This document shows positions 5,004-43,256 of a stretch of 44,889 bases of DNA, in pieces. The position numbers were made by a program, and so were the translations under genes. The DNA is from Escherichia phage RuthEpting_Bas85: sequence record PQ850624.1, one strand, 5' to 3'. How positions within the stretch are numbered: position 1 is the first letter of the stretch; the number at the start of each line of letters is the position of its first letter. The notes beneath the pieces are model-generated. The model made no database searches and was not told the DNA's origin. It saw nothing but the letters and a program-made list of their open reading frames with translations.

Positions 5004-5768
5004 TTAGCGCGGAATACCGCAAATCTCGTTTAACGTCTTCACGTCCAGCGCTACTGCCGTTGACTTCGGCTTGTCCGGGTATGGAATGAACTGTTCAACT
5101 TCAGGCCACGCCGCGATCAGCTTCTTGTCAGTATTGTGCATATCCAGCACGCCGGTAACAGTTAGTTTGAACGCGTCATACTTCGCACGCAATTCACGGC
5201 GGGCCTTGTCGTTGCGGTCCAGTCGCTTGCAGAAATCATGATCTGCCGGGTAGTCTGCGCGACCGCGCGGGAGATATATCGGCAGCGCTTTTCCATCTTC
5301 GTCCACTTCGCACACTGACGCGAGCATAATTTCCTCGTACCCCGGTACAATATCGCTGAGGTCCGGCGCGAGCTTATTCGTATATTTATCTTCCCAGTAT
5401 CCGCGATGAACGCGGTATTTACGACCGTCGCCGCTCAATGACAAGGTGCGAACGTTACCGCCTGCGTTGATTTCGAAAGTGGCGTCATAAACGCTGCCGA
5501 TACCTTTCGGGCGGTCGGTGTTATAGCTATATGTCGCCTTGTTGGTATATACGCTGACGCCGTACATCTGCGACTGGTCATCGCGGATTGATACAATATA
5601 TGCGCGTAGCTCGGCGAACGTGTGAATGCCTTTTGGCATACAGTGCAACGTGATGTCGTACGCCAGGTCGCGAGAGTCCATCATGATTTTTTTGGCTTCA
5701 GTCGCGATTTCGTGGTCGCGCAGGATGTTAGCCAGAATCTGGTTTTTAATGTCTTTTGTCAGTCTCAT
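5004..5768 (-). CDS. hypothetical protein (opposite-strand moron in head region)
   Basis: 254-aa ORF, ATG start with RBS GAGGA; no motif recognised; opposite orientation to the flanking structural genes. Confidence 0.5.
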   Translation of the reverse strand: MRLTKDIKNQILANILRDHEIATEAKKIMMDSRDLAYDITLHCMPKGIHTFAELRAYIVSIRDDQSQMYGVSVYTNKATYSYNTDRPKGIGSVYDATFEINAGGNVRTLSLSGDGRKYRVHRGYWEDKYTNKLAPDLSDIVPGYEEIMLASVCEVDEDGKALPIYLPRGRADYPADHDFCKRLDRNDKARRELRAKYDAFKLTVTGVLDMHNTDKKLIAAWPEVEQFIPYPDKPKSTAVALDVKTLNEICGIPR

Positions 5769-16950: not shown

Positions 16951-17558
16951 CCACATTTAAATTGTACGGCGTCTTAGGACGTCGTTTTGGTAAAGTGCAT
17001 AAGCTGGACTGCTTCACACCTGGCGAGGGTATCACCGGCCTATGCGTGAAGTTGCCAGGCTTACAGGACTTTCTAATGTCGGCCCACCTGGAAAACATGA
17101 TGTTCAAGGTGCGCAAGGGTAATCACACAATGACCGGCTACGACGAGTTGGGTGAGTTCCACGGCGACCGCGTAGTTACCATCGCGCCGGTTATGACTGG
17201 TGCTAAAAGCGGACTTGGACAATTGCTGGCTGGCGTAGCTATCGTGGTGGCGTCGTTCTACACTGGCGGGCTTGCCGCTGCCGCTTTCGGGGCTTCCGCT
17301 GCGACCGCCGCCGCTATCGGAACGGCGACGTTTTCGTTCGGTATGTCGCTTGCGCTGGGCGGCGCTATGCAATTGCTGTCACCGCAACCGAAAGGATTGC
17401 AGACACGGCAGGACGTGGATAACAAGGCGTCGTATGCGTTCGGCGGGCCGGTAAACACGACCGCGCAAGGCACAGCACTTGGTGTATTATGGGGAGAGCG
17501 TGAGATCGGCGGCGCTATTATTTCAGCCGGAATTGTAACCGAGGATTTGAACGAATGA
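16941..17558 (+). CDS. tail assembly protein (gpI-like)
   Basis: 205 aa with Gly/Ala-rich hydrophobic C-terminal half; position between K-like and J-like genes. Confidence 0.7.
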   Translation: MAMTTFKLYGVLGRRFGKVHKLDCFTPGEGITGLCVKLPGLQDFLMSAHLENMMFKVRKGNHTMTGYDELGEFHGDRVVTIAPVMTGAKSGLGQLLAGVAIVVASFYTGGLAAAAFGASAATAAAIGTATFSFGMSLALGGAMQLLSPQPKGLQTRQDVDNKASYAFGGPVNTTAQGTALGVLWGEREIGGAIISAGIVTEDLNE

Positions 17559-20500
17559 CGATTATCTACGACGTCACGGGCCATAAAGGCGGCGGTGGCA
17601 AACAGCACACCCCACAGGAGACGCCTGATAGCCTGCATTCGCTGGCTAAAATCCGCATCTTGCTCGCACTGGGCGAGGGCGAATTTGAAGGCATTCCCGA
17701 CCCTAACGAATTACGGCAGCGTGTATACCTGGACGGCACACCGATCCAGAACGCCGACCTGTCGGATAACTTCCCCGGCGCGCGCGTGGAGTTCCGCCCC
17801 GGCACGCAGCACCAGGATGTGATTCACGGTTTTTCAGCGGTGGAAAGCGAGCAAACAGTAGGCGTAAAACTGGAACAGGGACAGCCGTGGGTCCGCCAGA
17901 TTTCGGACACCAGTCTGGACGCGGTGCGTATTCGAATCGGTATTCCGGCCCTGTACACTAACGAAGATAATGGCGACCTGGTGGGCGGGCGCATCGACTA
18001 TAAAATCGTTGTGTATACCGATAACGCCGATCCGCGCGAGTTTACATTCGCTGCCGTTGGTAAAACAATGTCGCTGTACGAGCGGGACCACCGCATCGAA
18101 TTACCGCCGAACGTTAACACCGGCTGGCGCGTGGAGGTGCACCGCACAACGACAGACTCCACATCGGCGAAAGTGGTCAACGATATCCAGGTACAATCCA
18201 TTACTGAGATTATCGACGCCCGCCTGCGTTACCCGCTAACCGCGCTGTTGTTCGTGGAGTTCGATGCTAAGGCGTTCCAGAACATCCCGCGTGTGTCCAT
18301 CAAGTGCAAAGGCCGCAAAGTGCTGATCCCGAACAACTACGACCCCGTGAACCATACCTATTCGGGCGATTGGGATGGCACATTTAAACGCGCCTGGACG
18401 GATAACCCGGCATGGCACTGGTACGATATTTGTATTACTGAGCGCTTCGGCCTCGGTCGTCGTGTCAAGCCACAAATGCTAAACCGTTACGCGCTCTACC
18501 AGATTGCGCAGCGCTGCGATCAGATGGTCAGTGACGGCAACGGCGGACAGGAAATCCGATTTAAGAATGATATGTACATTCAGTCGCAGACAGACGCCTG
18601 GACCGTGCTGAAGGATTTAGCGGCAATCTTTGCCGGTATGACTTGGTGGGGCAACCAGATGTTGAATATCGTCAGCGACCAGCCGGTCGCAGCGGTGTCG
18701 CACACTATCACCAACGCCTCGGTTATTGATGGTAGATTCGACTACGCATCAGGAAGCCAGAAAACTCGGTATTCCACGTTCTCGGTAGCCTACGGCAACC
18801 CGAAAAACCATTACGAGGACGCCATCGCAACGGGCCAGCGTGTCGAACTGGTGCGCCGCCATAAGATTAACCGCCTTGATATCACGGCGATCGGCTGTAC
18901 GCGAGAATCTGAAGCGCAACGCCGCGGGCACTGGGCGCTAATCTCCAACCAGCTTGACCAGCAAGTTAGCTTTAAGGTTGGCATGGAGGGGCTATTCTTT
19001 ATTCCGGGGAGCGTAGTTGCGATCGCGGATACTAACATTTCTGGCGGCTTCGAGACACGCGGCGGTCGCCTGTTGTCTGACCCCGGCACGCGCACCGTGC
19101 TGAACACAGACAGCGAAATCACGTTCCGCCCTGGTGATAAATTCCTGGTGCGCACCGATAGCGGTAATGTGGAGACTCGCGAGATTGCCAGCGTCAACGG
19201 CAACCAGGTCACGCTAAAAACCGCACTGGACGCCGACCCGATTCCTGATCAGCCGTTTTGCGTTGATGGCGATGATATCCAGTTGCAGAAGTTCCGCATC
19301 ACCGACCTGGAATATGACGACGCTACCAGCACTTTTTCGGTGCGCGGGATTGAGTACAACGATAGCAAATATGATGCCGTTGATAATGGCGCGCGTCTTG
19401 ATCCGGGTATATTCACGCAAGTGCCAGACGGCGTAATGAAGGGACCGGAATCCGTGACCATCACCACGTCGCAGATTTCATCACAAGGCCAGCTAATCAC
19501 TAACGTGGATATTGTATTCCCGCCGGTGAAGGATGCCGTTGTGTACGAAATCCAGTGGCGACGTACCAGCTTGCAGAATCTGGAAGTACAGTGGGGCAAC
19601 GACTGGGTGAACATCCCACGCACGGCATCGAACGGGGCGCACATCCCGAACGTGTTTTCTGGTAACTACCAGGCACGCGTCCGCGCGATCGGTATGGGCG
19701 AGATTTCATCCCCGTGGGTGTCATCCGCCATCACGCCGGTGGAGGGTCGTCTTGGTGGGCTTAACGCGCCTATCATCACCAACGCGATTTCGGGCCTTCA
19801 CCAAATTTTGTGGAAGTGGAACCACAACAACGCCGCGACGGATATTTCGTATACCGAGCTTGAAGTGCGCAAGCTGGGAGAAACGGAATGGAAATTCCTA
19901 ACCAACGTCCCATATCCGGGGTCGGACTATGCACAAACGTCGCTGGAGTTCGGGATCTATCAGCAGTTGCGCGCACGCGTAGCGGATAAAATCGGCAACC
20001 TGTCAGACTGGTCAGATCCGTTCGACGGGCAGGTGAGTGACAAAGTTGACGAGTACATGCAGGGGCTTGATGACGAGTTCTTGACTTCCGAGGACGGTAA
20101 ACACTTCCAGGAAGCAATCGACACCATTCCGCAAGGCATCTATGAGTCAATGCTTACGGACGCCCAGCAGTTATTCAACGCCCGCGCCGAGTATAAAGGG
20201 ATTTATGCGGAAATTACGGTGGCGTATAACGTGGCGGCGGATGCTCACGAAGCTGTAGCGCAACTGGAGACGTTGATCGGCACGCGCCTTGACGATGCGG
20301 AAGCGTCAATCCACACGTTGCAGACCGCGCAAAGCACGCATGAGCAAGCATTCGCCCAGTACCAACAAACTGTTGCCGCTAAGTTCGGGGAGCAGGAAGC
20401 TGCCATCCAGCAGGTACAAACGGCAACGGCAGACGTAGCTGGCGCGCTGGCGGAGTATAAGACCCAGGTCGCGGCACAGTTCGGACAGCAGTCCGCAGCT

Positions 20501-21001
20501 ATCGAGCAGAAGATGACGTCTTCGTTTAACCATGCTGGCGGTAGCGCCACCTACAGCCTAAAAGCTGGCGTGACGTATAACGGGACTTACTATGATGCCG
20601 GTATGCAGCTTTCAGTTGTGGCGGAAGGTGGCGCGGTTAAATCCCGCATCGCGTTCAAGGCGGACCAGTTCTACATCATGCACCCGTCAAATGGGTCGCT
20701 TTCGTCCGCGTTCATCGTTGACGGCGGGCAGGTGTATATCGACACGGCACGCATCAAGAACGCGTCCATTAACTTCGCGCAGATCACGGACACGCTGCAA
20801 TCCAATAACTGGAATCCGGGTAACAGCGGCTGGCGTATCGCGAAGGATGGCGGGGCAGAGTTCAACAACGTTACGGTACGCGGCAACCTGTACGCAAATA
20901 CGGGTAACTTCGGATTCTCCGGCGGGTCAGTGACTATTGACGCAACGGGCGTCAACGTGCCATTACCTGGAGGGGGCAGGGTGAAAGTCGGAACGTGGTA
21001 A
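17555..21001 (+). CDS. central tail fibre / host specificity protein (gpJ-like)
   Basis: 1148 aa; largest tail gene, follows I-like gene; ends at a strong terminator. Confidence 0.9.
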   Translation: MTIIYDVTGHKGGGGKQHTPQETPDSLHSLAKIRILLALGEGEFEGIPDPNELRQRVYLDGTPIQNADLSDNFPGARVEFRPGTQHQDVIHGFSAVESEQTVGVKLEQGQPWVRQISDTSLDAVRIRIGIPALYTNEDNGDLVGGRIDYKIVVYTDNADPREFTFAAVGKTMSLYERDHRIELPPNVNTGWRVEVHRTTTDSTSAKVVNDIQVQSITEIIDARLRYPLTALLFVEFDAKAFQNIPRVSIKCKGRKVLIPNNYDPVNHTYSGDWDGTFKRAWTDNPAWHWYDICITERFGLGRRVKPQMLNRYALYQIAQRCDQMVSDGNGGQEIRFKNDMYIQSQTDAWTVLKDLAAIFAGMTWWGNQMLNIVSDQPVAAVSHTITNASVIDGRFDYASGSQKTRYSTFSVAYGNPKNHYEDAIATGQRVELVRRHKINRLDITAIGCTRESEAQRRGHWALISNQLDQQVSFKVGMEGLFFIPGSVVAIADTNISGGFETRGGRLLSDPGTRTVLNTDSEITFRPGDKFLVRTDSGNVETREIASVNGNQVTLKTALDADPIPDQPFCVDGDDIQLQKFRITDLEYDDATSTFSVRGIEYNDSKYDAVDNGARLDPGIFTQVPDGVMKGPESVTITTSQISSQGQLITNVDIVFPPVKDAVVYEIQWRRTSLQNLEVQWGNDWVNIPRTASNGAHIPNVFSGNYQARVRAIGMGEISSPWVSSAITPVEGRLGGLNAPIITNAISGLHQILWKWNHNNAATDISYTELEVRKLGETEWKFLTNVPYPGSDYAQTSLEFGIYQQLRARVADKIGNLSDWSDPFDGQVSDKVDEYMQGLDDEFLTSEDGKHFQEAIDTIPQGIYESMLTDAQQLFNARAEYKGIYAEITVAYNVAADAHEAVAQLETLIGTRLDDAEASIHTLQTAQSTHEQAFAQYQQTVAAKFGEQEAAIQQVQTATADVAGALAEYKTQVAAQFGQQSAAIEQKMTSSFNHAGGSATYSLKAGVTYNGTYYDAGMQLSVVAEGGAVKSRIAFKADQFYIMHPSNGSLSSAFIVDGGQVYIDTARIKNASINFAQITDTLQSNNWNPGNSGWRIAKDGGAEFNNVTVRGNLYANTGNFGFSGGSVTIDATGVNVPLPGGGRVKVGTW

Positions 21002-21008
21002 ATGCGAA

Positions 21009-21030
21009 GGGGCCATCTGGCCCCTTTTTT
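21009..21030. terminator. bidirectional rho-independent terminator
   Basis: GGGGCC-atct-GGCCCC followed by TTTTTT; between convergent J-like gene and minus-strand gene. Confidence 0.75.
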
Positions 21031-21994
21031 AATAGATGTTAGGGATGACTAATAGCGGGGTGGGTACGGCAATATTTTTGCCCGGCATTTGGAATTGCTG
21101 CCGTGAGTAGTTGCCAATAACGCGGTTTTTAGCGATGCGCACATTATTACCCGCCATTCGTATCCCGTTCATGCGCACATGGTTATAGCCTCCGTTGTTC
21201 TCAATGAGCGCACCGGTATATGAAAGCTGGATCAGACTATTACCGATGTGCTGGTCGCCGCCACCGATATTAATCGTTCGGTCGTAGACAAACGGCTTGT
21301 TTACCGTCGAGAACGTGACCTGCCCCTGGTTGTTAGTCATGGTGATACCGGTCCCCGGTGAGGGCGGCGTATTGTTGAATATGACCAGGTCCATATCAAC
21401 GGCAGCGCCTACGTCGTCAATCCCGCCATAGGACGCATTACGGACAATGATACTTCCGCCATCGAAGCCAACCGATACGTTGCCGTCGTCCCAGCGCGCG
21501 AACGGGACACCGCCGACTGGTAGCGGCATACTTCCGTTTACATGCACGCGCTGCGCATATCGGCACGTCATTAGCCGTGATACGTTGGATATGGCGGTGA
21601 AGTCCGTTGAGTTAGCCACCAGTAAGCCCGCATTGCGTGACCCCACCGGCAGCACTTCCATAATCACCCCGCCCCATGTTGGAAGCCCGCTGTATGCGTT
21701 ATAGGCGTCCTCACCGCGCAAGGTGATTCCGCCATCCCCGTTACGTTGTATCGACGTCACATAAAACGGGTCTGGCAAGACCAGGGTCTGGTCGAATACC
21801 TCAATCACTTCAACCGGATTAGTTAGGGCAACGACCAGTTCGGACCCTGGTGTCAGCGGTGTGTTAATGGACAGCGTCTTGTCAGACTGACAGCGCTGAT
21901 TAAAGGTAGTGCAAAACGACGGAGCGCGAAGGCCCGCGGTTATCTCCATGACAGGTCTACCGTCGTTGTAGTCGATTAATATTCCGGCACCCAT
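21029..21994 (-). CDS. receptor-binding / tail tip protein (putative)
   Basis: ATG at 21994 with RBS GGGAG (ORF track extends to GTG 22003); ~321 aa, Gly/Asn/Val/Ile-rich beta-type composition, no signal peptide; co-oriented with the lipoprotein gene upstream. Function by context only. Confidence 0.4.
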   Translation of the reverse strand: MGAGILIDYNDGRPVMEITAGLRAPSFCTTFNQRCQSDKTLSINTPLTPGSELVVALTNPVEVIEVFDQTLVLPDPFYVTSIQRNGDGGITLRGEDAYNAYSGLPTWGGVIMEVLPVGSRNAGLLVANSTDFTAISNVSRLMTCRYAQRVHVNGSMPLPVGGVPFARWDDGNVSVGFDGGSIIVRNASYGGIDDVGAAVDMDLVIFNNTPPSPGTGITMTNNQGQVTFSTVNKPFVYDRTINIGGGDQHIGNSLIQLSYTGALIENNGGYNHVRMNGIRMAGNNVRIAKNRVIGNYSRQQFQMPGKNIAVPTPLLVIPNIY

Positions 21995-21996
21995 TA

Positions 21997-22218
21997 TTAC
22001 CACTCCCGTGATTTAACTGATACAGTACCGGAAAAATTGCCGTCGCTATCGGCAGACAGGCCAGTGAAGCGCATGTCAACATCTCCGGCAGGGACTTTTT
22101 GCCCGTCAACGTAACGCAACATGCAGCTTCCGTAAGCCACCGTAATGCAATCACCGTTGTTGCGTTCTACAGCACAACCGGACAAAAGGACCGCACAAAT
22201 CATAATTAAAGTTTTCAT
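21997..22218 (-). CDS. Cor/Llp-like superinfection-exclusion lipoprotein (putative)
   Basis: Start at ATG 22218 (RBS GGAGA); 73 aa; signal peptide MKTLIMICAVLLSGC with lipobox LSGC; small Cys-containing mature part; adjacent to tail fibre genes. Confidence 0.55.
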   Translation of the reverse strand: MKTLIMICAVLLSGCAVERNNGDCITVAYGSCMLRYVDGQKVPAGDVDMRFTGLSADSDGNFSGTVSVKSREW

Positions 22219-22235
22219 GTTATCATCTCCTATAT

Positions 22236-22269
22236 TTGGTTGAGTTTTAGTATTACACCGCTCAACCAA
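22236..22269. promoter_or_regulatory. operator-like inverted repeat upstream of the lipoprotein operon
   Basis: TTGGTTGAG-N16-CTCAACCAA (9-bp arms) enclosing TAGTATTAC; lies within the 5' extension of the minus-strand ORF track (ORF 21997-22281), upstream of the preferred ATG 22218. Confidence 0.4.
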
Positions 22270-22298
22270 GAATGCAACCAATTTATGAGGATTCAGCT

Positions 22299-24077
22299 AT
22301 GGCAGCGGGTACACTATCCGTAACGAATAACAGCAAGGCGGTTGTGGGCGTCGGCACAACGCTTACCGCGCTGAAGGCTGGCGACTTCCTGTCGCTGGTA
22401 GTGGGGCAAGTACCTTACACTGTCGCTATTGCATCCGTAGAAAGCGACACCGCGCTTACGCTGGTGCTGCCGTTCGATGGCCCAACGGCAACCGGCCTCG
22501 CATGGGATAGCGTGGCGCGCGATACCATGTCCCTTGCAACGATGGGTGTAACCGTCCAGGCGCAGAAAGCGCTCCGTATGCTTATCGCGGACGAAAACAA
22601 CTGGCGTGCAATCTTCGGCGACGCTGAGGAGATCACTGTCACGCTCCCGAACGGGCAAGTAATGCAGGGTATGTCATGGGGCTATCTGTCGCAATTGCTC
22701 AAGCAAGTTGACCCCGTAGAGATGCGCAACCTGCAACAACAAGCCGCCGCATCGGAAGCCGCCGCGCAGGGATACCGGAACGAGGCAGAAGGCTTCAAGA
22801 CTGATACGCAGGCGATCCACGACGCCACCGATCAGATTAAGACTGATACGCAGGCGATCCACGACGCCACCAACACCATCAAGACGCAGACCAACCAGAT
22901 TAAGACTGATACGCAGGCCATCAAGGACGAGACTGACCAGATTAAGACGGATACTGGCGCTATTCGCGATCAGGCCAATACAGCGAAGACGGACGCGCAA
23001 GCCGCCCGTGATGCCGCGCGGGGATACCGGAACGAGGCCGAACAATTCAAGAATGAGATCGACCCGTCGAAATTGCTGGCAAAGGCCAGCAACCTTAGCG
23101 ACGTTGCAGACGTTGCAGAAGCGCGCGACAACTTAGGTATCGGGCCGACGGATACACTTAATCTTGGTGGCCTGGTAACGTCCGGCGGTATCTCCGCGGG
23201 TCGAAACACGTGGGACGGGTCAAACTGGGGGAGCCAAGGGGTTATTGCATCATTAGCTATCCTAGCACCAGACGGAAACTCAACCCCCGGCTTATATGTG
23301 CGTAACAGCAACGGCAGCGGCGGATATGCGTCTGAATGGCTGTATTATGAGAACACGAACGCCTGGGCGACGAACGCGCGAGTTGTCGGCTATCAATTCC
23401 GTTCCCCGAAGGGGACTATGGGATATCATCAGTTGTGGTCTGAAGCTGCGGTACGAGTGGACCCGTACATCGGGCAGCTTAACGCGGAAAACTATCAGTC
23501 GTTAATCGCGGGGGCTGCTATGACGCAAGGCCACGGATTTGCGGGCGGTGTTTCGTTCGGGATTATGACAACCGGCAGTAACAACTGGCCTCGGGCGCAG
23601 ATCTCGATCGGCACACAGGACCGTGACGCCGCGGGGGATATGGGGCTTCAGATGCATTTCCGCTTCGATGATCAGGGGCGGATCTCTTACAGCGGACCAC
23701 AAGGCACGGGGTCATTCCAGCAAGTGCCCGCATCTGACCGCAACCTGAAGCATGATATTGCCGATGATGCCAGCAGCACCGCCTACGACAATATCAAGGC
23801 TATGCGATTCCGTACGTTCGTATTCAACAACGACGAGCAAGAACGGCAGCGCCGCGGTGTTATCGCGCAAGAACTGGAAGAAATCGACCCGCTGTATGTG
23901 AAACACCGAGAGTATAACAACCATGAGTTAAACGGGCCATTGATGCACCAGCTTGAACTGGACACAACGCCGCTGTTACTCGACACTATGCGGGCGTTGC
24001 AGGATACGATTAAGCAGGTGGAGGAGTTGAAGGCCGAGATCGCAGCTATGAAACAAGTGGAGGAGTTGAAGAAATAA
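22299..24077 (+). CDS. side tail fibre with C-terminal intramolecular chaperone domain
   Basis: Start at ATG 22299 (RBS GAGGA); N-terminal fibre domain, heptad-repeat array, C-terminal region (SDRNLKHDIADD...RFRTFVFNNDEQERQRRGVIAQELEEIDPLYV) typical of self-cleaving chaperone domains of T5 pb1/K1F-type fibres. Confidence 0.8.
   Translation: MAAGTLSVTNNSKAVVGVGTTLTALKAGDFLSLVVGQVPYTVAIASVESDTALTLVLPFDGPTATGLAWDSVARDTMSLATMGVTVQAQKALRMLIADENNWRAIFGDAEEITVTLPNGQVMQGMSWGYLSQLLKQVDPVEMRNLQQQAAASEAAAQGYRNEAEGFKTDTQAIHDATDQIKTDTQAIHDATNTIKTQTNQIKTDTQAIKDETDQIKTDTGAIRDQANTAKTDAQAARDAARGYRNEAEQFKNEIDPSKLLAKASNLSDVADVAEARDNLGIGPTDTLNLGGLVTSGGISAGRNTWDGSNWGSQGVIASLAILAPDGNSTPGLYVRNSNGSGGYASEWLYYENTNAWATNARVVGYQFRSPKGTMGYHQLWSEAAVRVDPYIGQLNAENYQSLIAGAAMTQGHGFAGGVSFGIMTTGSNNWPRAQISIGTQDRDAAGDMGLQMHFRFDDQGRISYSGPQGTGSFQQVPASDRNLKHDIADDASSTAYDNIKAMRFRTFVFNNDEQERQRRGVIAQELEEIDPLYVKHREYNNHELNGPLMHQLELDTTPLLLDTMRALQDTIKQVEELKAEIAAMKQVEELKK
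22794..23021 (+). repeat. in-frame heptad/42-bp tandem repeat array in fibre gene
   Basis: Protein repeats KTDTQAI-HDATDQI with Ile every 7th residue over ~75 aa; nucleotide unit AAGACTGATACGCAGGCGATCCACGACGCCACC repeated; flanked by 19-bp direct repeats GGGATACCGGAACGAGGC at 22769 and 23021. Confidence 0.7.
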
Positions 24078-24081
24078 GAGA

Positions 24082-24102
24082 GGGGCCATACGGCCCCTTT
24101 TT
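24082..24102. terminator. bidirectional rho-independent terminator
   Basis: GGGGCC-atac-GGCCCC followed by TTTTT; between fibre stop (24077) and convergent minus-strand gene (stop 24101). Confidence 0.75.
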
Positions 24103-24676
24103 AGTTTGAGTTTTCCCAGTCCATTTTTCGCCGCACCAGCGGACTCTCGTAATATTCCTTGCCTTCTACTGCCACCAACGGCCAATCGTTCACAATCACG
24201 TATGGCTCCGCAATATCCTCAATTACACCGTGCGCGCTATGTTGCCCGAACGATACGCCCACCAGGATAACACCGGCAACTCGACGGGTTAGATATTCGC
24301 GAGCGCAACGGGCTTCTACCAGTCCGCGACGGATGCCGCTGGTGGCTTTGACCTCGTAGGTCCAGACGGCATCAATCATGTGCTCACGGAAGTCGGGGCC
24401 AGACTTAACCTTGCGTTTGCCGACCATGATAATATCGCCGCGGTCGATAGTATTGGCGCTAAACAGGCCGGTACGCATAAGTAAGCCTTGCGGGATACAA
24501 CTACGCCCGCCTGCCTGCCCTTCAAGGTACATGCCTGCAAACATCTCGCCCAGCACACCGACAAGTCGGCTTTGCTTGCACGCGTCAGACTTTAAGCGCC
24601 ACTGGTCAAACTCGACGCTTGCTAACATTGCCGCGATGTGGAATTGTTTACCGGTTATTTCATATTCGCCATACAT
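24101..24676 (-). CDS. hypothetical protein (possible PD-(D/E)xK-like motif)
   Basis: 191 aa, ATG with RBS GAGGA; weak D...EVK pattern (GDIIMV...TYEVKA); no firm assignment. Confidence 0.5.
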   Translation of the reverse strand: MYGEYEITGKQFHIAAMLASVEFDQWRLKSDACKQSRLVGVLGEMFAGMYLEGQAGGRSCIPQGLLMRTGLFSANTIDRGDIIMVGKRKVKSGPDFREHMIDAVWTYEVKATSGIRRGLVEARCAREYLTRRVAGVILVGVSFGQHSAHGVIEDIAEPYVIVNDWPLVAVEGKEYYESPLVRRKMDWENSN

Positions 24677-24718
24677 TGTGAAGTCCTCATTGCTGCGGGC
24701 CGAAGCCCGCTATTAGAA

Positions 24719-25240
24719 TTATTTAAGTGCGCTAGTCACCAGTGTTTTTTCCATGTTGCGGAAGTCTTCCGGCGTCATGAGAATTTTGGACCCATCCTCG
24801 CCAGTGAGCACGACCATAGGCTGGACTTCTTGATCTACCACACCGAAATTGGCGGCGTTAACCATCTTGCCAGCAGATGACGAAGGATGCCACGCACCGG
24901 CAATGTCAAGGGGCCAACCCTTGAGGCTGTCGAATTGCGCTGCCGTTGTATCGATCTGAATCTCATCATGCACGGTCATGTGCGACTCACCCAGTAGTGC
25001 GGCATACGCAACCAGGTCAACAATATTGTCTTCCTGGTGCTTACGGTGCTGGCGCACCAGCTTCAGGCAGATCAGGAAGGTCCAGGCTTCTTGCTCTGTA
25101 AGGTCGCGACCGGTAAGCGCGTTAAACACGGCAGCGATTTGCTTCGCGCTGCGTTCTTCTTTCGCGTTATCATAGCCGTTCTCTTTCCCGCGCTGTTCCA
25201 TAGTGGTGGCGGCGTTCTTGCAGTATTCAAATGCTTTCAT
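24719..25240 (-). CDS. hypothetical protein
   Basis: Start at ATG 25240 (MKAFEY..., RBS AAGGA); ~173 aa; helical N-terminal region with acidic motifs; no firm assignment. Confidence 0.5.
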   Translation of the reverse strand: MKAFEYCKNAATTMEQRGKENGYDNAKEERSAKQIAAVFNALTGRDLTEQEAWTFLICLKLVRQHRKHQEDNIVDLVAYAALLGESHMTVHDEIQIDTTAAQFDSLKGWPLDIAGAWHPSSSAGKMVNAANFGVVDQEVQPMVVLTGEDGSKILMTPEDFRNMEKTLVTSALK

Positions 25241-25292: not shown

Positions 25293-25314
25293 TGCAACCA
25301 ACCTATTGGTTGCA
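25293..25314. promoter_or_regulatory. palindromic TGCAACCAA-N4-TTGGTTGCA site
   Basis: Perfect 9-bp inverted arms; overlaps the stop of the HAD gene and precedes the 24719-25240 gene. Confidence 0.45.
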
Positions 25315-33930: not shown

Positions 33931-34019
33931 TTTTCATTTCCTCATTTCGCATGTATCGGGGTTATTGTGAGCCACCCCGTTCGGCTTGGTTGCTAATTTA
34001 CTTGGTTGCGCCTAAGCGG

Positions 34020-36142: not shown

Positions 36143-36661
36143 TTAATCTTCTAATTCGAAATACGTTTCTACTATTTCTTTTAAATCTTTATGGAAGTCT
36201 TCGACGTCGTCATCTTCCAGCTTGGCGACGGATTTAATTTCGAACGCTTCCAGCAGATCATCAAATTCGTCGTTTGCGTCGTCGTCATCGCCGCCTGCGA
36301 TAATCGCGGCATACTGCTTGATTTCGTCGCGCATCTCTTTCAGAGGATCGGCTTCTTTCTTGCCTTTACCTTTCGCCGGTGCTTTTTTAGACTTCGCAGG
36401 TGCTTCTTCCTCGTCCGCGTCGTCGTCATCTTCTACGGCTTCTTTCTTAGCCTTGCCCTTTGCAGGCGCTTTTTTGGACTTCGCCGGTGCTTCATCTTCA
36501 GCGTCGTCATCTTCGACTACTTCTTCTTTTGCCTTGCTCTTAGCCGGGGCTTTCTTCGCTTCCTGTTTACCAACGGCAGCGCCAGCAGTTTCGTAATGCT
36601 TAGCGATGGTTTCCAGTGCTACTACGCCGCGAGTGATCAGGTTTACGATTTGCTCAAACAT
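36143..36661 (-). CDS. highly charged repeat protein (first gene of leftward early operon)
   Basis: 172 aa; ATG 36661 with RBS GGAGA; two ~29-aa tandem repeats (EDDDAEDEAPAKSKKAPAKGKAKKEAV) and an acidic C-terminal half. Confidence 0.5.
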   Translation of the reverse strand: MFEQIVNLITRGVVALETIAKHYETAGAAVGKQEAKKAPAKSKAKEEVVEDDDAEDEAPAKSKKAPAKGKAKKEAVEDDDDADEEEAPAKSKKAPAKGKGKKEADPLKEMRDEIKQYAAIIAGGDDDDANDEFDDLLEAFEIKSVAKLEDDDVEDFHKDLKEIVETYFELED

Positions 36662-36721
36662 GGTATATCTCCGATTGGTTAATTTAAGTATTCGGTGCGG
36701 TATGCCCCGTCAACGAGGTGG

Positions 36722-36930: not shown

Positions 36931-37260
36931 ATGCATATCCACGACGCTATCGAAATGTTAACTACGGCTGTTAGTGGCGAGACAAGCCGGTCCTGGGCTT
37001 ATACCGATGCCGTTGGCGCGGCGTTATTTGAGATCGAACGCCTGCGCAGTGCCGAAAAAGAATTGCGCGCCAAGCTGGAATTACTCAACGGTACGGCAGC
37101 AAGCAAGTTGCAAAAGCACAATGAAGAAATGGAAGAATACAAAAAGCAGGTTATCCGTTTGCGCGACGAGGGCAAGTCCTGGGCGATGATTGCCGAGTTG
37201 ACCGGAATTAATCAAAGCACCGTGCGCTCCTGGGTACGCAATAATAAAACTTCTAAGTAA
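36931..37260 (+). CDS. HTH-containing regulatory protein (putative)
   Basis: 109 aa; C-terminal HTH-like segment KSWAMIAELTGINQSTVRSWVRN; first gene of the rightward operon. Confidence 0.55.
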   Translation: MHIHDAIEMLTTAVSGETSRSWAYTDAVGAALFEIERLRSAEKELRAKLELLNGTAASKLQKHNEEMEEYKKQVIRLRDEGKSWAMIAELTGINQSTVRSWVRNNKTSK

Positions 37261-39535: not shown

Positions 39536-39626
39536 ATTTTGCGCGCATTGGTTGCCAAATTGAGTGTTTTTAGCTGGTCGCATTGGTTGCCGTGTAGTGT
39601 AAATATAGTGAATAGTTATGCAGTTT

Positions 39627-39745
39627 TATTGCATAAAATAAGCGGGACAAAAAGCGGGACAGACAGGGGGCGGGACAAAGCGGGACAGCACCCCTTGTCC
39701 CGCCCGGATGGCGCGGCTTTCAGAGGAGCGGGACAGGCGGGACAA
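39627..39745. repeat. iteron array B (second copy)
   Basis: TTGCATAAAAT followed by six exact GCGGGACA copies (39642, 39654, 39670, 39680, 39728, 39737) and one inverted TGTCCCGC; ~85% identical to 11895-12018. Confidence 0.8.
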
Positions 39746-39749
39746 ACCC

Positions 39750-39799
39750 CAGTCTTTCAGACTAGACGGGGGTCAGTCGGCCCCCCTCGTCTGAGACTG
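39750..39799 (+). other. long imperfect hairpin B
   Basis: CAGTCTTTCAGACTAGACGGGGG-tcagtcg-GCCCCCCTCGTCTGAGACTG; arms identical to hairpin A, loop one nt longer. Confidence 0.6.
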
Positions 39800-40017
39800 C
39801 ATAAAATCCGGGATTGCATAATGTACGGCAGCATGACGTGAATTGCGGTCGTCGACGAACTAGGCAACCAATGCGAGTTGTATTATGGGTGGTGAAAAAT
39901 GCAGTTTGCAGTTACAGCAGATAGCGATCAACTTTTTCATACGCATGATTAATATTGGTTGCATTCAGCCTGGCACCCTGCTAGATTGGTTGCACCCCAA
40001 CGAGAGGACCAAACAAA

Positions 40018-43217: not shown

Positions 43218-43256
43218 TTGACTTGCAACCAACATAGGGGCCATACTGCAACCAAT
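43218..43256 (+). promoter_or_regulatory. sigma70-like promoter overlapped by two TGCAACCAA(C/T) motifs
   Basis: TTGACT(43218-43223)-N18-CATACT(43242-43247); motifs at 43224-43233 and 43247-43256. Confidence 0.45.

Follow-up and report, generated by a model that had tools for sequence, protein, structure and literature searches.

A predicted LptD-type receptor-binding and superinfection exclusion gene pair in the Escherichia phage RuthEpting_Bas85

Introduction

The closest described relative of the locus considered here is that of Oekolampad (Bas18), a phage of the same genus, Dhillonvirus, which has the same gene order, a receptor-binding protein (RBP) of the same length and a J protein 94.9% identical to the present one. 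The LptD dependence of Oekolampad is known from experiment, as are the structures and binding of its RBP and of Rtp45, the superinfection exclusion (SE) lipoprotein of phage Rtp (PMC12685063). In the cryo-EM complexes of the Oekolampad RBP with LptDE (9RPT, 9RPW and 9RQI), Gln299 of the RBP contacts Ser350 of LptD, and in the Rtp45–LptDE structure the lipoprotein is bound to the periplasmic face of LptDE and extracellular loop 4 is displaced (Dunbar 2025, PMC12685063); expression of Oekolampad's own SE protein failed (PMC12685063). Resistance mutations in lptD have been tied to this type of locus (Maffei 2021, PMC8594841). Oekolampad is blocked by the lptD mutations D352Y and Y671N and by deletion of Y658-Y678. 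Since LptD is essential, it is invisible to transposon screens.

More distant members of the same kind are the Rtp44/Rtp45 pair of Rtp and its near-identical counterpart in AugustePiccard (Bas01), which belong to the same protein families as the present pair (DUF6453 and PF24052), occupy the same position in the same orientation downstream of J, and accompany the same type of J tail. These phages belong to another family, Drexlerviridae; their RBPs (311 vs 321 aa) are about 33-34% and their SE proteins about 35-39% identical to the present ones, and the lipoproteins carry a different signal peptide.

T5 combines pb5 (gene oad), a monomeric RBP located at the central fibre tip, with Llp, a periplasm-facing lipoprotein that disables the receptor; the two genes are adjacent, and the receptor is FhuA, not LptD. 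The T5 oad and llp genes are divergent and differently timed, llp being an early gene. Cor of T1, phi80, N15 and the FhuA-type Dhillonviruses is likewise a small outer-membrane lipoprotein that excludes by receptor inactivation; it acts on FhuA, and FhuA-type cassettes place the candidate RBP genes on the same strand as J, with only cor on the opposite one. Llp acts through long-range allostery, whereas Rtp45 acts by steric loop displacement (PMC12685063).

Results

Layout of the locus

The window analysed is the whole 44,889-nt stretch of RuthEpting_Bas85 DNA (PQ850624.1). An earlier note, made from the sequence alone, had placed a lipoprotein gene and an RBP-like gene on the minus strand, against the tail operon, and this layout holds: the pair lies between a J-like gene (17555-21001, plus strand, 1148 aa) and a plus-strand fibre gene with a probable start at 22299. 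The features of the locus are as follows.

20811-21001, plus strand: 3'-terminal ~63 codons of the gene for the J-like central fibre protein, receptor-cassette-specific (homology break, C-terminal alignment)
21006-21033, plus strand: intrinsic terminator after J, hairpin (21006-21027) and T-run (fold energy)
21029-21994, minus strand: predicted RBP, 321 aa, DUF6453 family (Pfam, PDB, identity to Oekolampad gp25)
21997-22218, minus strand: predicted SE lipoprotein precursor, 73 aa (Pfam PF24052, Rtp45 match, identity to the Oekolampad SE protein)
22172-22218, minus strand: signal-peptide and lipobox codons, right-hand cassette junction (homology to Cor-type loci)
22236-22269, no strand assigned: conserved palindrome TTGGTTGAG-N16-CTCAACCAA between the divergent genes (conservation in relatives)
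22274-22282, plus strand: copy of the GCAACCAAT motif between the palindrome and the ribosome-binding site of the fibre gene (invariant)
22299-24077, plus strand: lateral tail fibre gene, adjacent to the module but outside it (PHROG 1980, Peptidase_S74)

Over the locus, the DNA is 99.9% identical to that of Escherichia phage Haito_Bas83, a Dhillonvirus, and judged by this comparison the phage is essentially the BASEL phage Bas83, an E. coli Dhillonvirus. The order J-like gene (+), RBP and lipoprotein genes (−), lateral tail fibre gene (+) is shared with Oekolampad, TheodorHerzl and AugustePiccard. The Bas83 locus has been assigned to LptD by locus comparison (Humolli 2025, PMC11990801), and a 2026 bioRxiv preprint made the same assignment from locus structure (10.64898/2026.04.02.716166); both assignments thus rest on comparison of loci. 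The gene pair is the published LptD-type host-recognition module of a Dhillonvirus. The first reading of an RBP accompanied by a receptor-blocking SE lipoprotein, with LptD among the receptors named, was right but brings no novelty because the module had already been published.

The neighbouring lateral fibre matches PHROG 1980 (tail fibre, E=2e-137) and carries a Peptidase_S74 chaperone domain. Its probable start is the ATG at 22299, preceded by GAGGA, to which the GenBank start also corresponds. The Oekolampad lateral fibre diverges from the present one after ~840 nt, and the Bas83 lateral fibre is reported to recognise the O16 O-antigen (PMC11990801).

The 321-aa protein

The 321-aa protein, correctly described in the earlier note as Gly/Asn-rich (11.8% Gly, 9.0% Asn), matches PF20051 (DUF6453) with 397.6 bits (cut-off 25; E=4e-119), the alignment spanning 290 of the model's 291 positions. 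In a PDB-wide phmmer search, its residues 1-321 aligned without gaps to residues 1-321 of 9RPT chain C (E=1e-192), the Oekolampad RBP in its LptDE complex. Identity to Oekolampad gp25 is 89.1% end to end, the 35 differing residues being spread along the length, and Gln299 is kept. On this homology, we assign the 321-aa protein as the terminal RBP, which caps the central tail fibre and binds LptD. A single-sequence AlphaFold2 model of the protein was unusable (mean pLDDT 29).

The 73-aa lipoprotein

The lipoprotein begins with MKTLIMICAVLLSGC, followed by AVERNNGDC, and bears out the previous description in having an LSGC lipobox (Cys15) and further cysteines, Cys24 and Cys32, in the mature part. 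It comprises a signal peptide (residues 1-14), the lipidated Cys15 and 58 mature residues; the lipobox context is MKTLIMICAVLLSG-C15-A16, so that position +2 is Ala, not Asp. Both lipobox recognition and the +2 sorting rule are established.

The protein matches the Pfam family PF24052 (Phage_lipoprotein; 75.4 bits, cut-off 27, E=3.6e-21) and PHROG 4281 (E=4e-33), and a PDB-wide phmmer search retrieved Rtp45 (9RPS chain D, E=2e-8). The cysteines at 24 and 32 fall opposite Cys30 and Cys38 of Rtp45, which form a disulfide there, and the pair is kept in all five aligned homologues; Rtp45, the Bas01 SE protein and the present one also share a VPAGEVD(M/V)R motif and a C-terminal (R/K)EW. With the Oekolampad SE lipoprotein (bas18_0026), 72 of 73 residues are identical. 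By homology to Rtp45, the one lipoprotein of this kind with demonstrated LptDE binding (PMC12685063), the 73-aa lipoprotein would be expected to confer exclusion.

The parallel drawn earlier to T5 oad-llp and to cor stands as to function but not as to sequence. Membership in the Cor family was rejected, as PHROG 1119 matches residues 1-30 only (E=6e-4) and the mature part bears no relation to its Cor-type counterparts in KarlBarth, SSL-2009a and PaulFeyerabend; the Cor match is one of the signal peptide only. Membership in the T5 pb5/Llp families was also rejected on sequence: PDB-wide phmmer searches returned no pb5 or Llp chain, the RBP query (E up to 1) giving 9rpt_C only and the lipoprotein query (E up to 10) giving Rtp45 plus weak matches under unrelated names. 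By family assignment, then, the pair belongs to the Rtp44/Rtp45 families and not to Cor or T5 pb5/Llp.

Borders of the exchangeable cassette

In nucleotide comparison, homology to FhuA-type or long-J Dhillonviruses ends at 20798-20810, ahead of the last ~63 codons of the J-like gene. The J C-terminus beyond this break, GNFGFSG...GVNVPLPGGGRVKVGTW, is common to the LptD-type phages Oekolampad, TheodorHerzl and AugustePiccard (the last in Drexlerviridae) and absent from the FhuA-type KarlBarth and SSL-2009a, so that the C-terminal ~60 aa of J co-vary with the RBP family across two phage families. We infer that these last ~63 codons likely encode the docking site of the RBP.

On the other side, the cor genes of the Dhillonviruses KarlBarth and SSL-2009a lie in the same slot, on the same strand and behind the same upstream region. 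KarlBarth, SSL-2009a and PaulFeyerabend become homologous again at 22172-22174, one codon after the Cys15 codon (22174-22176); the 15-residue N-terminus MKTLIMICAVLLSGC is identical or one residue off (V9 in KarlBarth) in the Cor-type lipoproteins, whose mature sequences are then unrelated. The exchangeable cassette extends from the last ~63 codons of J to the lipobox cysteine codon.

Operon structure and terminators

The lipoprotein gene ends in TAA, and the ATG of the 321-aa reading frame (21994) follows two bases later, with a Shine-Dalgarno sequence, GGGAG, 8 nt upstream, inside the lipoprotein gene. Most likely the pair is a single minus-strand operon whose translation is coupled; the 2-nt spacing suggests co-transcription. 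This tandem arrangement is unlike the T5 pair, and it would have an exclusion factor expressed together with a late structural protein, again unlike T5.

Bidirectional terminators had been proposed on both flanks of the pair. One strong hairpin (21006-21027) indeed touches it, with a fold energy of -16.9 kcal/mol on the plus strand (z=-3.0) followed by UUUUUU; on the minus strand the same hairpin, also the 3' stem-loop of the convergent RBP gene, folds with -15.7 kcal/mol and has no U-tract, CGCAUUUACC following the stem. The T-tract thus serves J (plus strand) only, and there is no terminator upstream of the pair; a truly two-sided terminator lies at 24077-24102, beyond the fibre gene. Scanning 20700-24800 for sigma-70 promoters and terminators gave counts at chance level, and no promoter for the pair stood out above chance (5 sigma-70-like matches vs 3.9 expected). 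Weak matches inside the SE gene on the minus strand, terminator-like at 22054-22038 and promoter-like at 22226-22199, are left without interpretation because the scan counts are at chance. A literature search for Dhillonvirus transcription data gave nothing relevant, and the paper on FhuA Dhillonviruses (PMC10373560) contains nothing on the lipoprotein signal peptide or promoters.

The palindrome and an over-represented motif

The palindromic site reported upstream of the pair is real, a perfect 9+9 bp inverted repeat (22236-22244 and 22261-22269). As a bare inverted repeat it is at chance expectation, four repeats of 8-9 nt occurring in 1.4 kb, two of them within coding sequence, and significance attaches to it solely through its conservation among relatives: 18 of 19 distinct Dhillonvirus sequences have it, irrespective of cassette type. 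Judged by this distribution, the palindrome belongs to the conserved backbone and not to the receptor cassette. The GCAACCAAT copy at 22274-22282 is invariant in all relatives (alignment A1 columns 48-56), and the palindrome itself holds degenerate copies of the motif. In the window, GCAACCAAT has 15 exact copies vs 0.49 expected, a ~30-fold excess, and 15 copies were reached in none of 100 shuffles. A perfect 20-bp palindrome occurs at 25294-25313. At gathering thresholds, Rfam gave no match anywhere in the window, and a literature search for the motif string returned primer sequences only.

Discussion

The whole of the evidence is very probably best explained by an LptD-type module consisting of a terminal RBP and an LptD-blocking prolipoprotein, and the present phage would accordingly depend on LptD. 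The RBP probably attaches by non-covalent contacts to the final ~60 residues of the J-like central fibre protein. The 73-aa prolipoprotein would be lipidated at Cys15 and, with Ala at +2, be directed to the inner leaflet of the outer membrane, where, by homology to Rtp45, it is predicted to bind the periplasmic side of LptD between LptE and LptM. Once bound, it would push a hairpin up the LptD lumen and displace extracellular loop 4, leaving the RBP of another phage, or of progeny that encounter cell debris, unable to bind. Weighing against this explanation are the 35 residues by which the RBP differs from that of Oekolampad, the derivation of the exclusion mechanism from Rtp45, which is only about 35-39% identical to the 73-aa lipoprotein, the promoter matches at chance level, and the expression of an exclusion factor together with a late structural protein, unlike T5.

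Two other readings of the pair were weighed. GenBank labels the 321-aa gene "membrane protein / moron", a description taken over from PHROG 1265, and the gene is oriented against the tail operon; on these grounds the protein could be a non-structural membrane protein and the pair an accessory host-takeover cassette. The label, however, is an inherited family description and not a test result; we find this reading scarcely credible and the label misleading for an RBP gene. Alternatively, the module could be of the same kind but directed to another terminal receptor, its RBP having switched, through its 11% divergence, to a different outer-membrane protein. The RBP differs from the solved Oekolampad RBP by 35 substitutions, the Bas83 receptor has been assigned by locus-based prediction (PMC11990801; 10.64898/2026.04.02.716166), and Bas01 combines an LptD-type locus with a second requirement, NupG, via a J domain (10.64898/2026.04.02.716166). 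However, RBPs as little as about 33-34% identical (Rtp44, Bas01, Bas14) still use LptD (PMC8594841, PMC12685063), the cognate SE lipoprotein is one residue off that of Oekolampad, and the J tail is of the LptD type, which makes retargeting very improbable.

The palindrome admits several readings. The earlier note had called it operator-like, and a phage DNA-binding protein acting on GCAACCAAT-type repeats could regulate two divergent promoters, one for the SE-RBP pair and one for the lateral fibre gene. Each arm is a degenerate copy (TCAACCAA) of the over-represented motif, and the invariant exact copy lies 4 nt downstream; elsewhere, motif pairs occur in or beside sigma-70-like promoters (TTGACC..GCAACCAAgTAAATTaGCAACCAA, 33986-34009; TTGACTtGCAACCAA..CATACTGCAACCAAT, 43225-43256), the motif sites are syntenic in relatives, a possible minus-strand promoter read by eye (TTGCAT, 17 nt, TGtAATACT) overlaps the repeats, and a small HTH protein is encoded at 36931-37260. 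Yet both arms differ from relative to relative, the third motif copy alone being invariant, LM40P1 has two direct copies in place of the palindrome, and the minus-strand promoter reading falls below the scan threshold, so that an operator appears doubtful. The palindrome might instead act at the RNA level, as a hairpin in the 5' leader of the lateral fibre transcript, serving stability or translational control and unrelated to the SE-RBP pair. The 42-nt segment folds with -12.2 kcal/mol (z=-4.1), and in 15 distinct sequences 17 one-sided changes stay paired as G-U on the plus strand, with one double change from U-A to C-G. Paired cells in the alignment amount to 97% on the plus strand vs 85% on the minus strand, six variable sites are tolerated on the plus strand only against one on the minus strand only, and the plus strand has a promoter-like site upstream (CGGACA, 16 nt, CATAAT, 22179-22206). 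Against this, the covariation is not significant, column shuffles matching the observed values in about half of trials; the 6-to-1 strand asymmetry has p ~0.06 (one-sided, binomial count); the 92-nt context folds no better than shuffled sequence (z=-0.25); and the promoter match is at chance level. We consider the hairpin reading somewhat unlikely. Tentatively, and short of an even chance, the palindrome and the invariant GCAACCAAT copy may form an uncharacterised genus-wide control element, belonging to the over-represented motif set found at promoters throughout the genome, that times the SE-RBP genes and the lateral fibre and, with the signal-peptide codons, provides a fixed right-hand homology arm for swapping LptD, FhuA and other cassettes.

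To the published picture, this analysis makes small additions: the exact cassette junctions, a correction of the moron label and the placing of the palindrome in a genome-wide motif family. Homologues of both the RBP and the lipoprotein are also found, unlinked, in phiEco32-like podoviruses (Kuravirus), the lipoprotein there being gp110-like, and because both are present these phages may use LptD too. The essential protein LptD is of interest to phage steering and to antibiotic design, and it is the module described here that decides which outer-membrane protein the phage needs.

Identity of the gene pair

Between the genes for the J-like central tail fibre protein (J) and the lateral tail fibre, and antiparallel to both, we found the minus-strand gene pair described in the earlier note, together with its LSGC lipobox and the Gly/Asn-rich composition of the 321-aa protein (11.8% Gly, 9.0% Asn). 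The features of the locus are as follows.

17555-21001, plus strand: J-like gene, 1148 aa
21029-21994, minus strand: gene of the receptor-binding protein (RBP), 321 aa, ATG at 21994 and end at 21029
21997-22218, minus strand: lipoprotein gene, 73 aa, product beginning MKTLIMICAVLLSGCAVERNNGDC..., with the LSGC lipobox and two more cysteines
22299, plus strand: probable (GenBank) start of the lateral tail fibre gene; ORF-finder start at 22272

The segment 20900-22400 matches Escherichia phage Haito_Bas83 (PQ850604.1), a Dhillonvirus of the second BASEL collection, at 99.9% identity, and dozens of further Dhillonviruses carry the same locus at 84-99% identity.

The 321-aa protein passes Pfam DUF6453 (E=4e-119) and aligns end to end and without gaps with PDB 9RPT chain C (E=1e-192), the RBP of the Dhillonvirus Oekolampad (Bas18) solved on LptDE. 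Gln299, which contacts LptD Ser350 (PMC12685063), is conserved in this alignment, and identity to the translated Oekolampad locus is 89.1% for the RBP, 94.9% for J and 72/73 residues for the lipoprotein. A single-sequence structure model (mean pLDDT 29) was unusable for fold-level comparison. The lipoprotein passes Pfam PF24052 (E=3.6e-21) and matches PDB 9RPS chain D, the superinfection-exclusion protein Rtp45 of phage Rtp, at about 35% identity (E=2e-8), with Cys24 and Cys32 aligned to the Rtp45 disulfide pair Cys30 and Cys38. Rtp45 was solved on the periplasmic side of LptDE, where extracellular loop 4 (EL4) is displaced by up to 20 Å and RBP binding is precluded; expression of Oekolampad's own superinfection-exclusion protein was not achieved (PMC12685063). 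By these matches, the two proteins are members of the Rtp44/Rtp45 families, and the proposed reading as a receptor-binding protein with a receptor-blocking lipoprotein is supported by close homologues with solved LptDE complexes.

The parallel drawn earlier with T5 oad-llp and with cor holds in function only. In PDB-wide phmmer searches neither protein showed sequence similarity to a chain named pb5 or Llp of T5, and membership of the lipoprotein in the Cor family was rejected: PHROG 1119 matches residues 1-30 only, and no relationship links the mature part to the Cor-type proteins that FhuA-type Dhillonviruses (KarlBarth, SSL-2009a, PaulFeyerabend) encode.

Transcription of the pair

The RBP ATG lies two bases past the TAA stop of the lipoprotein gene, within which GGGAG occurs 8 nt ahead of this start codon. 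Given a spacing of 2 nt and the lack of any signal between the genes, we infer that they are co-transcribed; a sigma-70 promoter scan for the pair gave nothing above chance level. Of the bidirectional terminators said to flank the pair, a single strong hairpin was recovered at 21006-21027, 3' of J, with a T-run on the plus strand only; the stem forms on the minus strand too, but there CGCAUUUACC comes after it. J has a good terminator in this hairpin, and the RBP gene at most a 3' stem-loop. The terminator scan found none upstream of the pair, and the two-sided terminator that it returned (24077-24102) lies past the fibre gene.

An exchangeable cassette with a junction inside the signal peptide

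Cassette boundaries were placed where homology of the window to Dhillonviruses with other cassettes ends and restarts. On the left, homology ends at 20798-20810, around J codon 1085. On the right, it restarts at 22172-22174 against FhuA-type phages, one codon beyond the lipobox Cys codon, and at 22205 against the long-J type and the Rtp-type allele of TheodorHerzl. The exchangeable unit spans ~1.36 kb and comprises the last ~63 codons of J, the RBP gene and the part of the lipoprotein gene that encodes the mature protein. Because the right junction falls one codon past the lipobox Cys codon, the otherwise unrelated Cor-type (FhuA) and Rtp45-type (LptD) Dhillonvirus lipoproteins have the signal peptide MKTLIMICAVLLSGC in common, identical or with a one-residue difference, and this sharing accounts for the spurious Cor match. 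The lipoprotein gene keeps its slot and strand in all three cassette types, whereas only in the LptD type is it followed on that strand by the RBP gene. The J tail co-varies with the RBP family, across phage families too, which fits a docking role, in line with the figure legends of a 2026 preprint (10.64898/2026.04.02.716166). A weak promoter-like site on the plus strand (22179-22206) lies inside the signal-peptide stretch 22172-22218.

A repeated motif at the adjoining palindrome

The palindromic site that the earlier note had considered operator-like was confirmed as a 9+9 bp inverted repeat. By itself it is unremarkable, since this 1.4 kb contains three more inverted repeats of 8-9 nt, two of which lie within coding sequence. 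Of 19 distinct Dhillonvirus sequences, 18 carry the palindrome irrespective of cassette type, and it is a backbone element outside the receptor cassette. Its arms (TCAACCAA) are degenerate copies of a 9-mer, GCAACCAAT.

22236-22269: inverted repeat
22274-22282: exact GCAACCAAT copy, 4 nt downstream of the palindrome, invariant in all relatives
25294-25313: perfect 20-bp palindrome GCAACCAAcctaTTGGTTGC, formed by one motif pair
Motif copies: 6152, 6166, 22274, 25294/25305, 27209, 27226, 30167, 33986/34002, 36729, 39547, 39582, 39864, 39954, 39985, 40695, 43225/43248

The 9-mer has 15 exact copies in the window against 0.49 expected (none of 100 shuffles reached 15), and the 8-mer GCAACCAA has 20. 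An operator-like role for the palindrome draws some support from this motif set, whose copies are mostly intergenic, stand in direct or inverted pairs, in several cases overlap or adjoin sigma-70-like promoters (-35/-10 elements), and are syntenic in other Dhillonviruses. The arms, however, vary among relatives while mostly keeping plus-strand G-U pairing, and the one relative without the palindrome has two direct motif copies instead. There are hints that the repeat acts as an RNA hairpin in the fibre mRNA leader, as pairing is kept at 97% on the plus strand versus 85% on the minus strand and one pair has a compensatory change, but column shuffles do equally well and the pairing is not significant. 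GCAACCAAT itself looks like a regulator binding site or a promoter element specific to the phage.

A cluster of five GCAACCAAT copies, in both orientations, occupies ~450 bp (39539-40000) where GenBank places the small hypothetical genes Bas83_0056 and Bas83_0057; the 100-aa ORF in this stretch matches no PHROG, and the stretch could be a replication origin or a non-coding control region. Additionally, the 109-aa product of 36931-37260 (plus strand), annotated "transposase", is a small helix-turn-helix protein (HTH_23 and Sigma70_r4_2-like, residues 65-105). Its gene adjoins a motif-bearing promoter region, and its candidacy as the GCAACCAAT-binding factor is pure speculation.

Other annotations in the window

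Bas83_0052 (36191-36682, plus strand) has no PHROG match, whereas the overlapping ORF 36143-36661 (minus strand) aligns along its entire length with phrog_3127 (E=8e-50). Ahead of that ORF, on the same strand as it, come a T-run and then TTGACA, 17 nt and TATTAT. The strand chosen in the GenBank record is probably the wrong one. The "hypothetical protein" at 5004-5768 (minus strand), which runs against the head genes, is a full-length match to Nmad5 (nucleotide modification associated domain 5; E=7e-56).

Homologues in other phages

In the phiEco32-like podoviruses (Kuravirus / Gordonclarkvirinae, Bas88 and Bas89 among them), genes for a DUF6453 protein and a PF24052 lipoprotein lie unlinked, ~45 kb apart, as in Escherichia phage Paul (MN045231.1).

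L024:2159-3193, plus strand: DUF6453 gene immediately downstream of the tail needle gene (Pfam E=1.5e-25; 9rpt_C E=3e-9)
L025:1468-1749, plus strand: PF24052 lipoprotein gene in the early region (Pfam E=5.5e-36; Rtp45 E=3e-15)

For these podoviruses, O-antigen and LPS are the only receptors given in the BASEL paper, and our literature search found no paper tying the phages to LptD; judging from the homologues, LptD may be their terminal receptor. Klebsiella phages such as TAH8 (MH633484.1 / NC_048042.1), NJS1 and the RCIP isolates carry homologues of the RBP (~32% identity) and the lipoprotein (~43% identity), which are non-adjacent, roughly 10 kb apart. DUF6453 homologues also occur in the temperate phages mEp515, phiES15 and SPN3UB.

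Proposed mechanism and significance

The RBP would most likely cap the central fibre via the extreme C-terminus of J, recognise LptD loops EL3-5 and EL11, and insert into the barrel. For the lipoprotein, lipidation at Cys15 would be followed by sorting to the outer membrane, because residue +2 is Ala; by homology, the protein would sit in the periplasmic mouth of LptD and keep EL4 where the RBP cannot bind, so that the infected cell would be shielded from superinfection and progeny would not be wasted on debris. The case for transferring these steps from the solved complexes is strong for the RBP (89% identity) and less so for the lipoprotein, which shares about 35% identity with Rtp45.

This module has been described before, for this phage as well, and for close homologues the description extends to atomic structures. 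Maffei et al. tied the allele to lptD resistance mutations, Oekolampad being among the cases (PMC8594841), Humolli et al. (2025) predicted that the module of Bas83-85 encodes LptD specificity (PMC11990801), and the 2026 preprint assigned Bas83 to LptD by locus structure and described the C-terminal domains of GpJ as receptor-specific; we likewise infer that LptD is the Bas83 receptor. What is left as new is the regulatory motif, the junction within the signal peptide, and the finding that phiEco32-like podoviruses have members of both protein families at unlinked loci.
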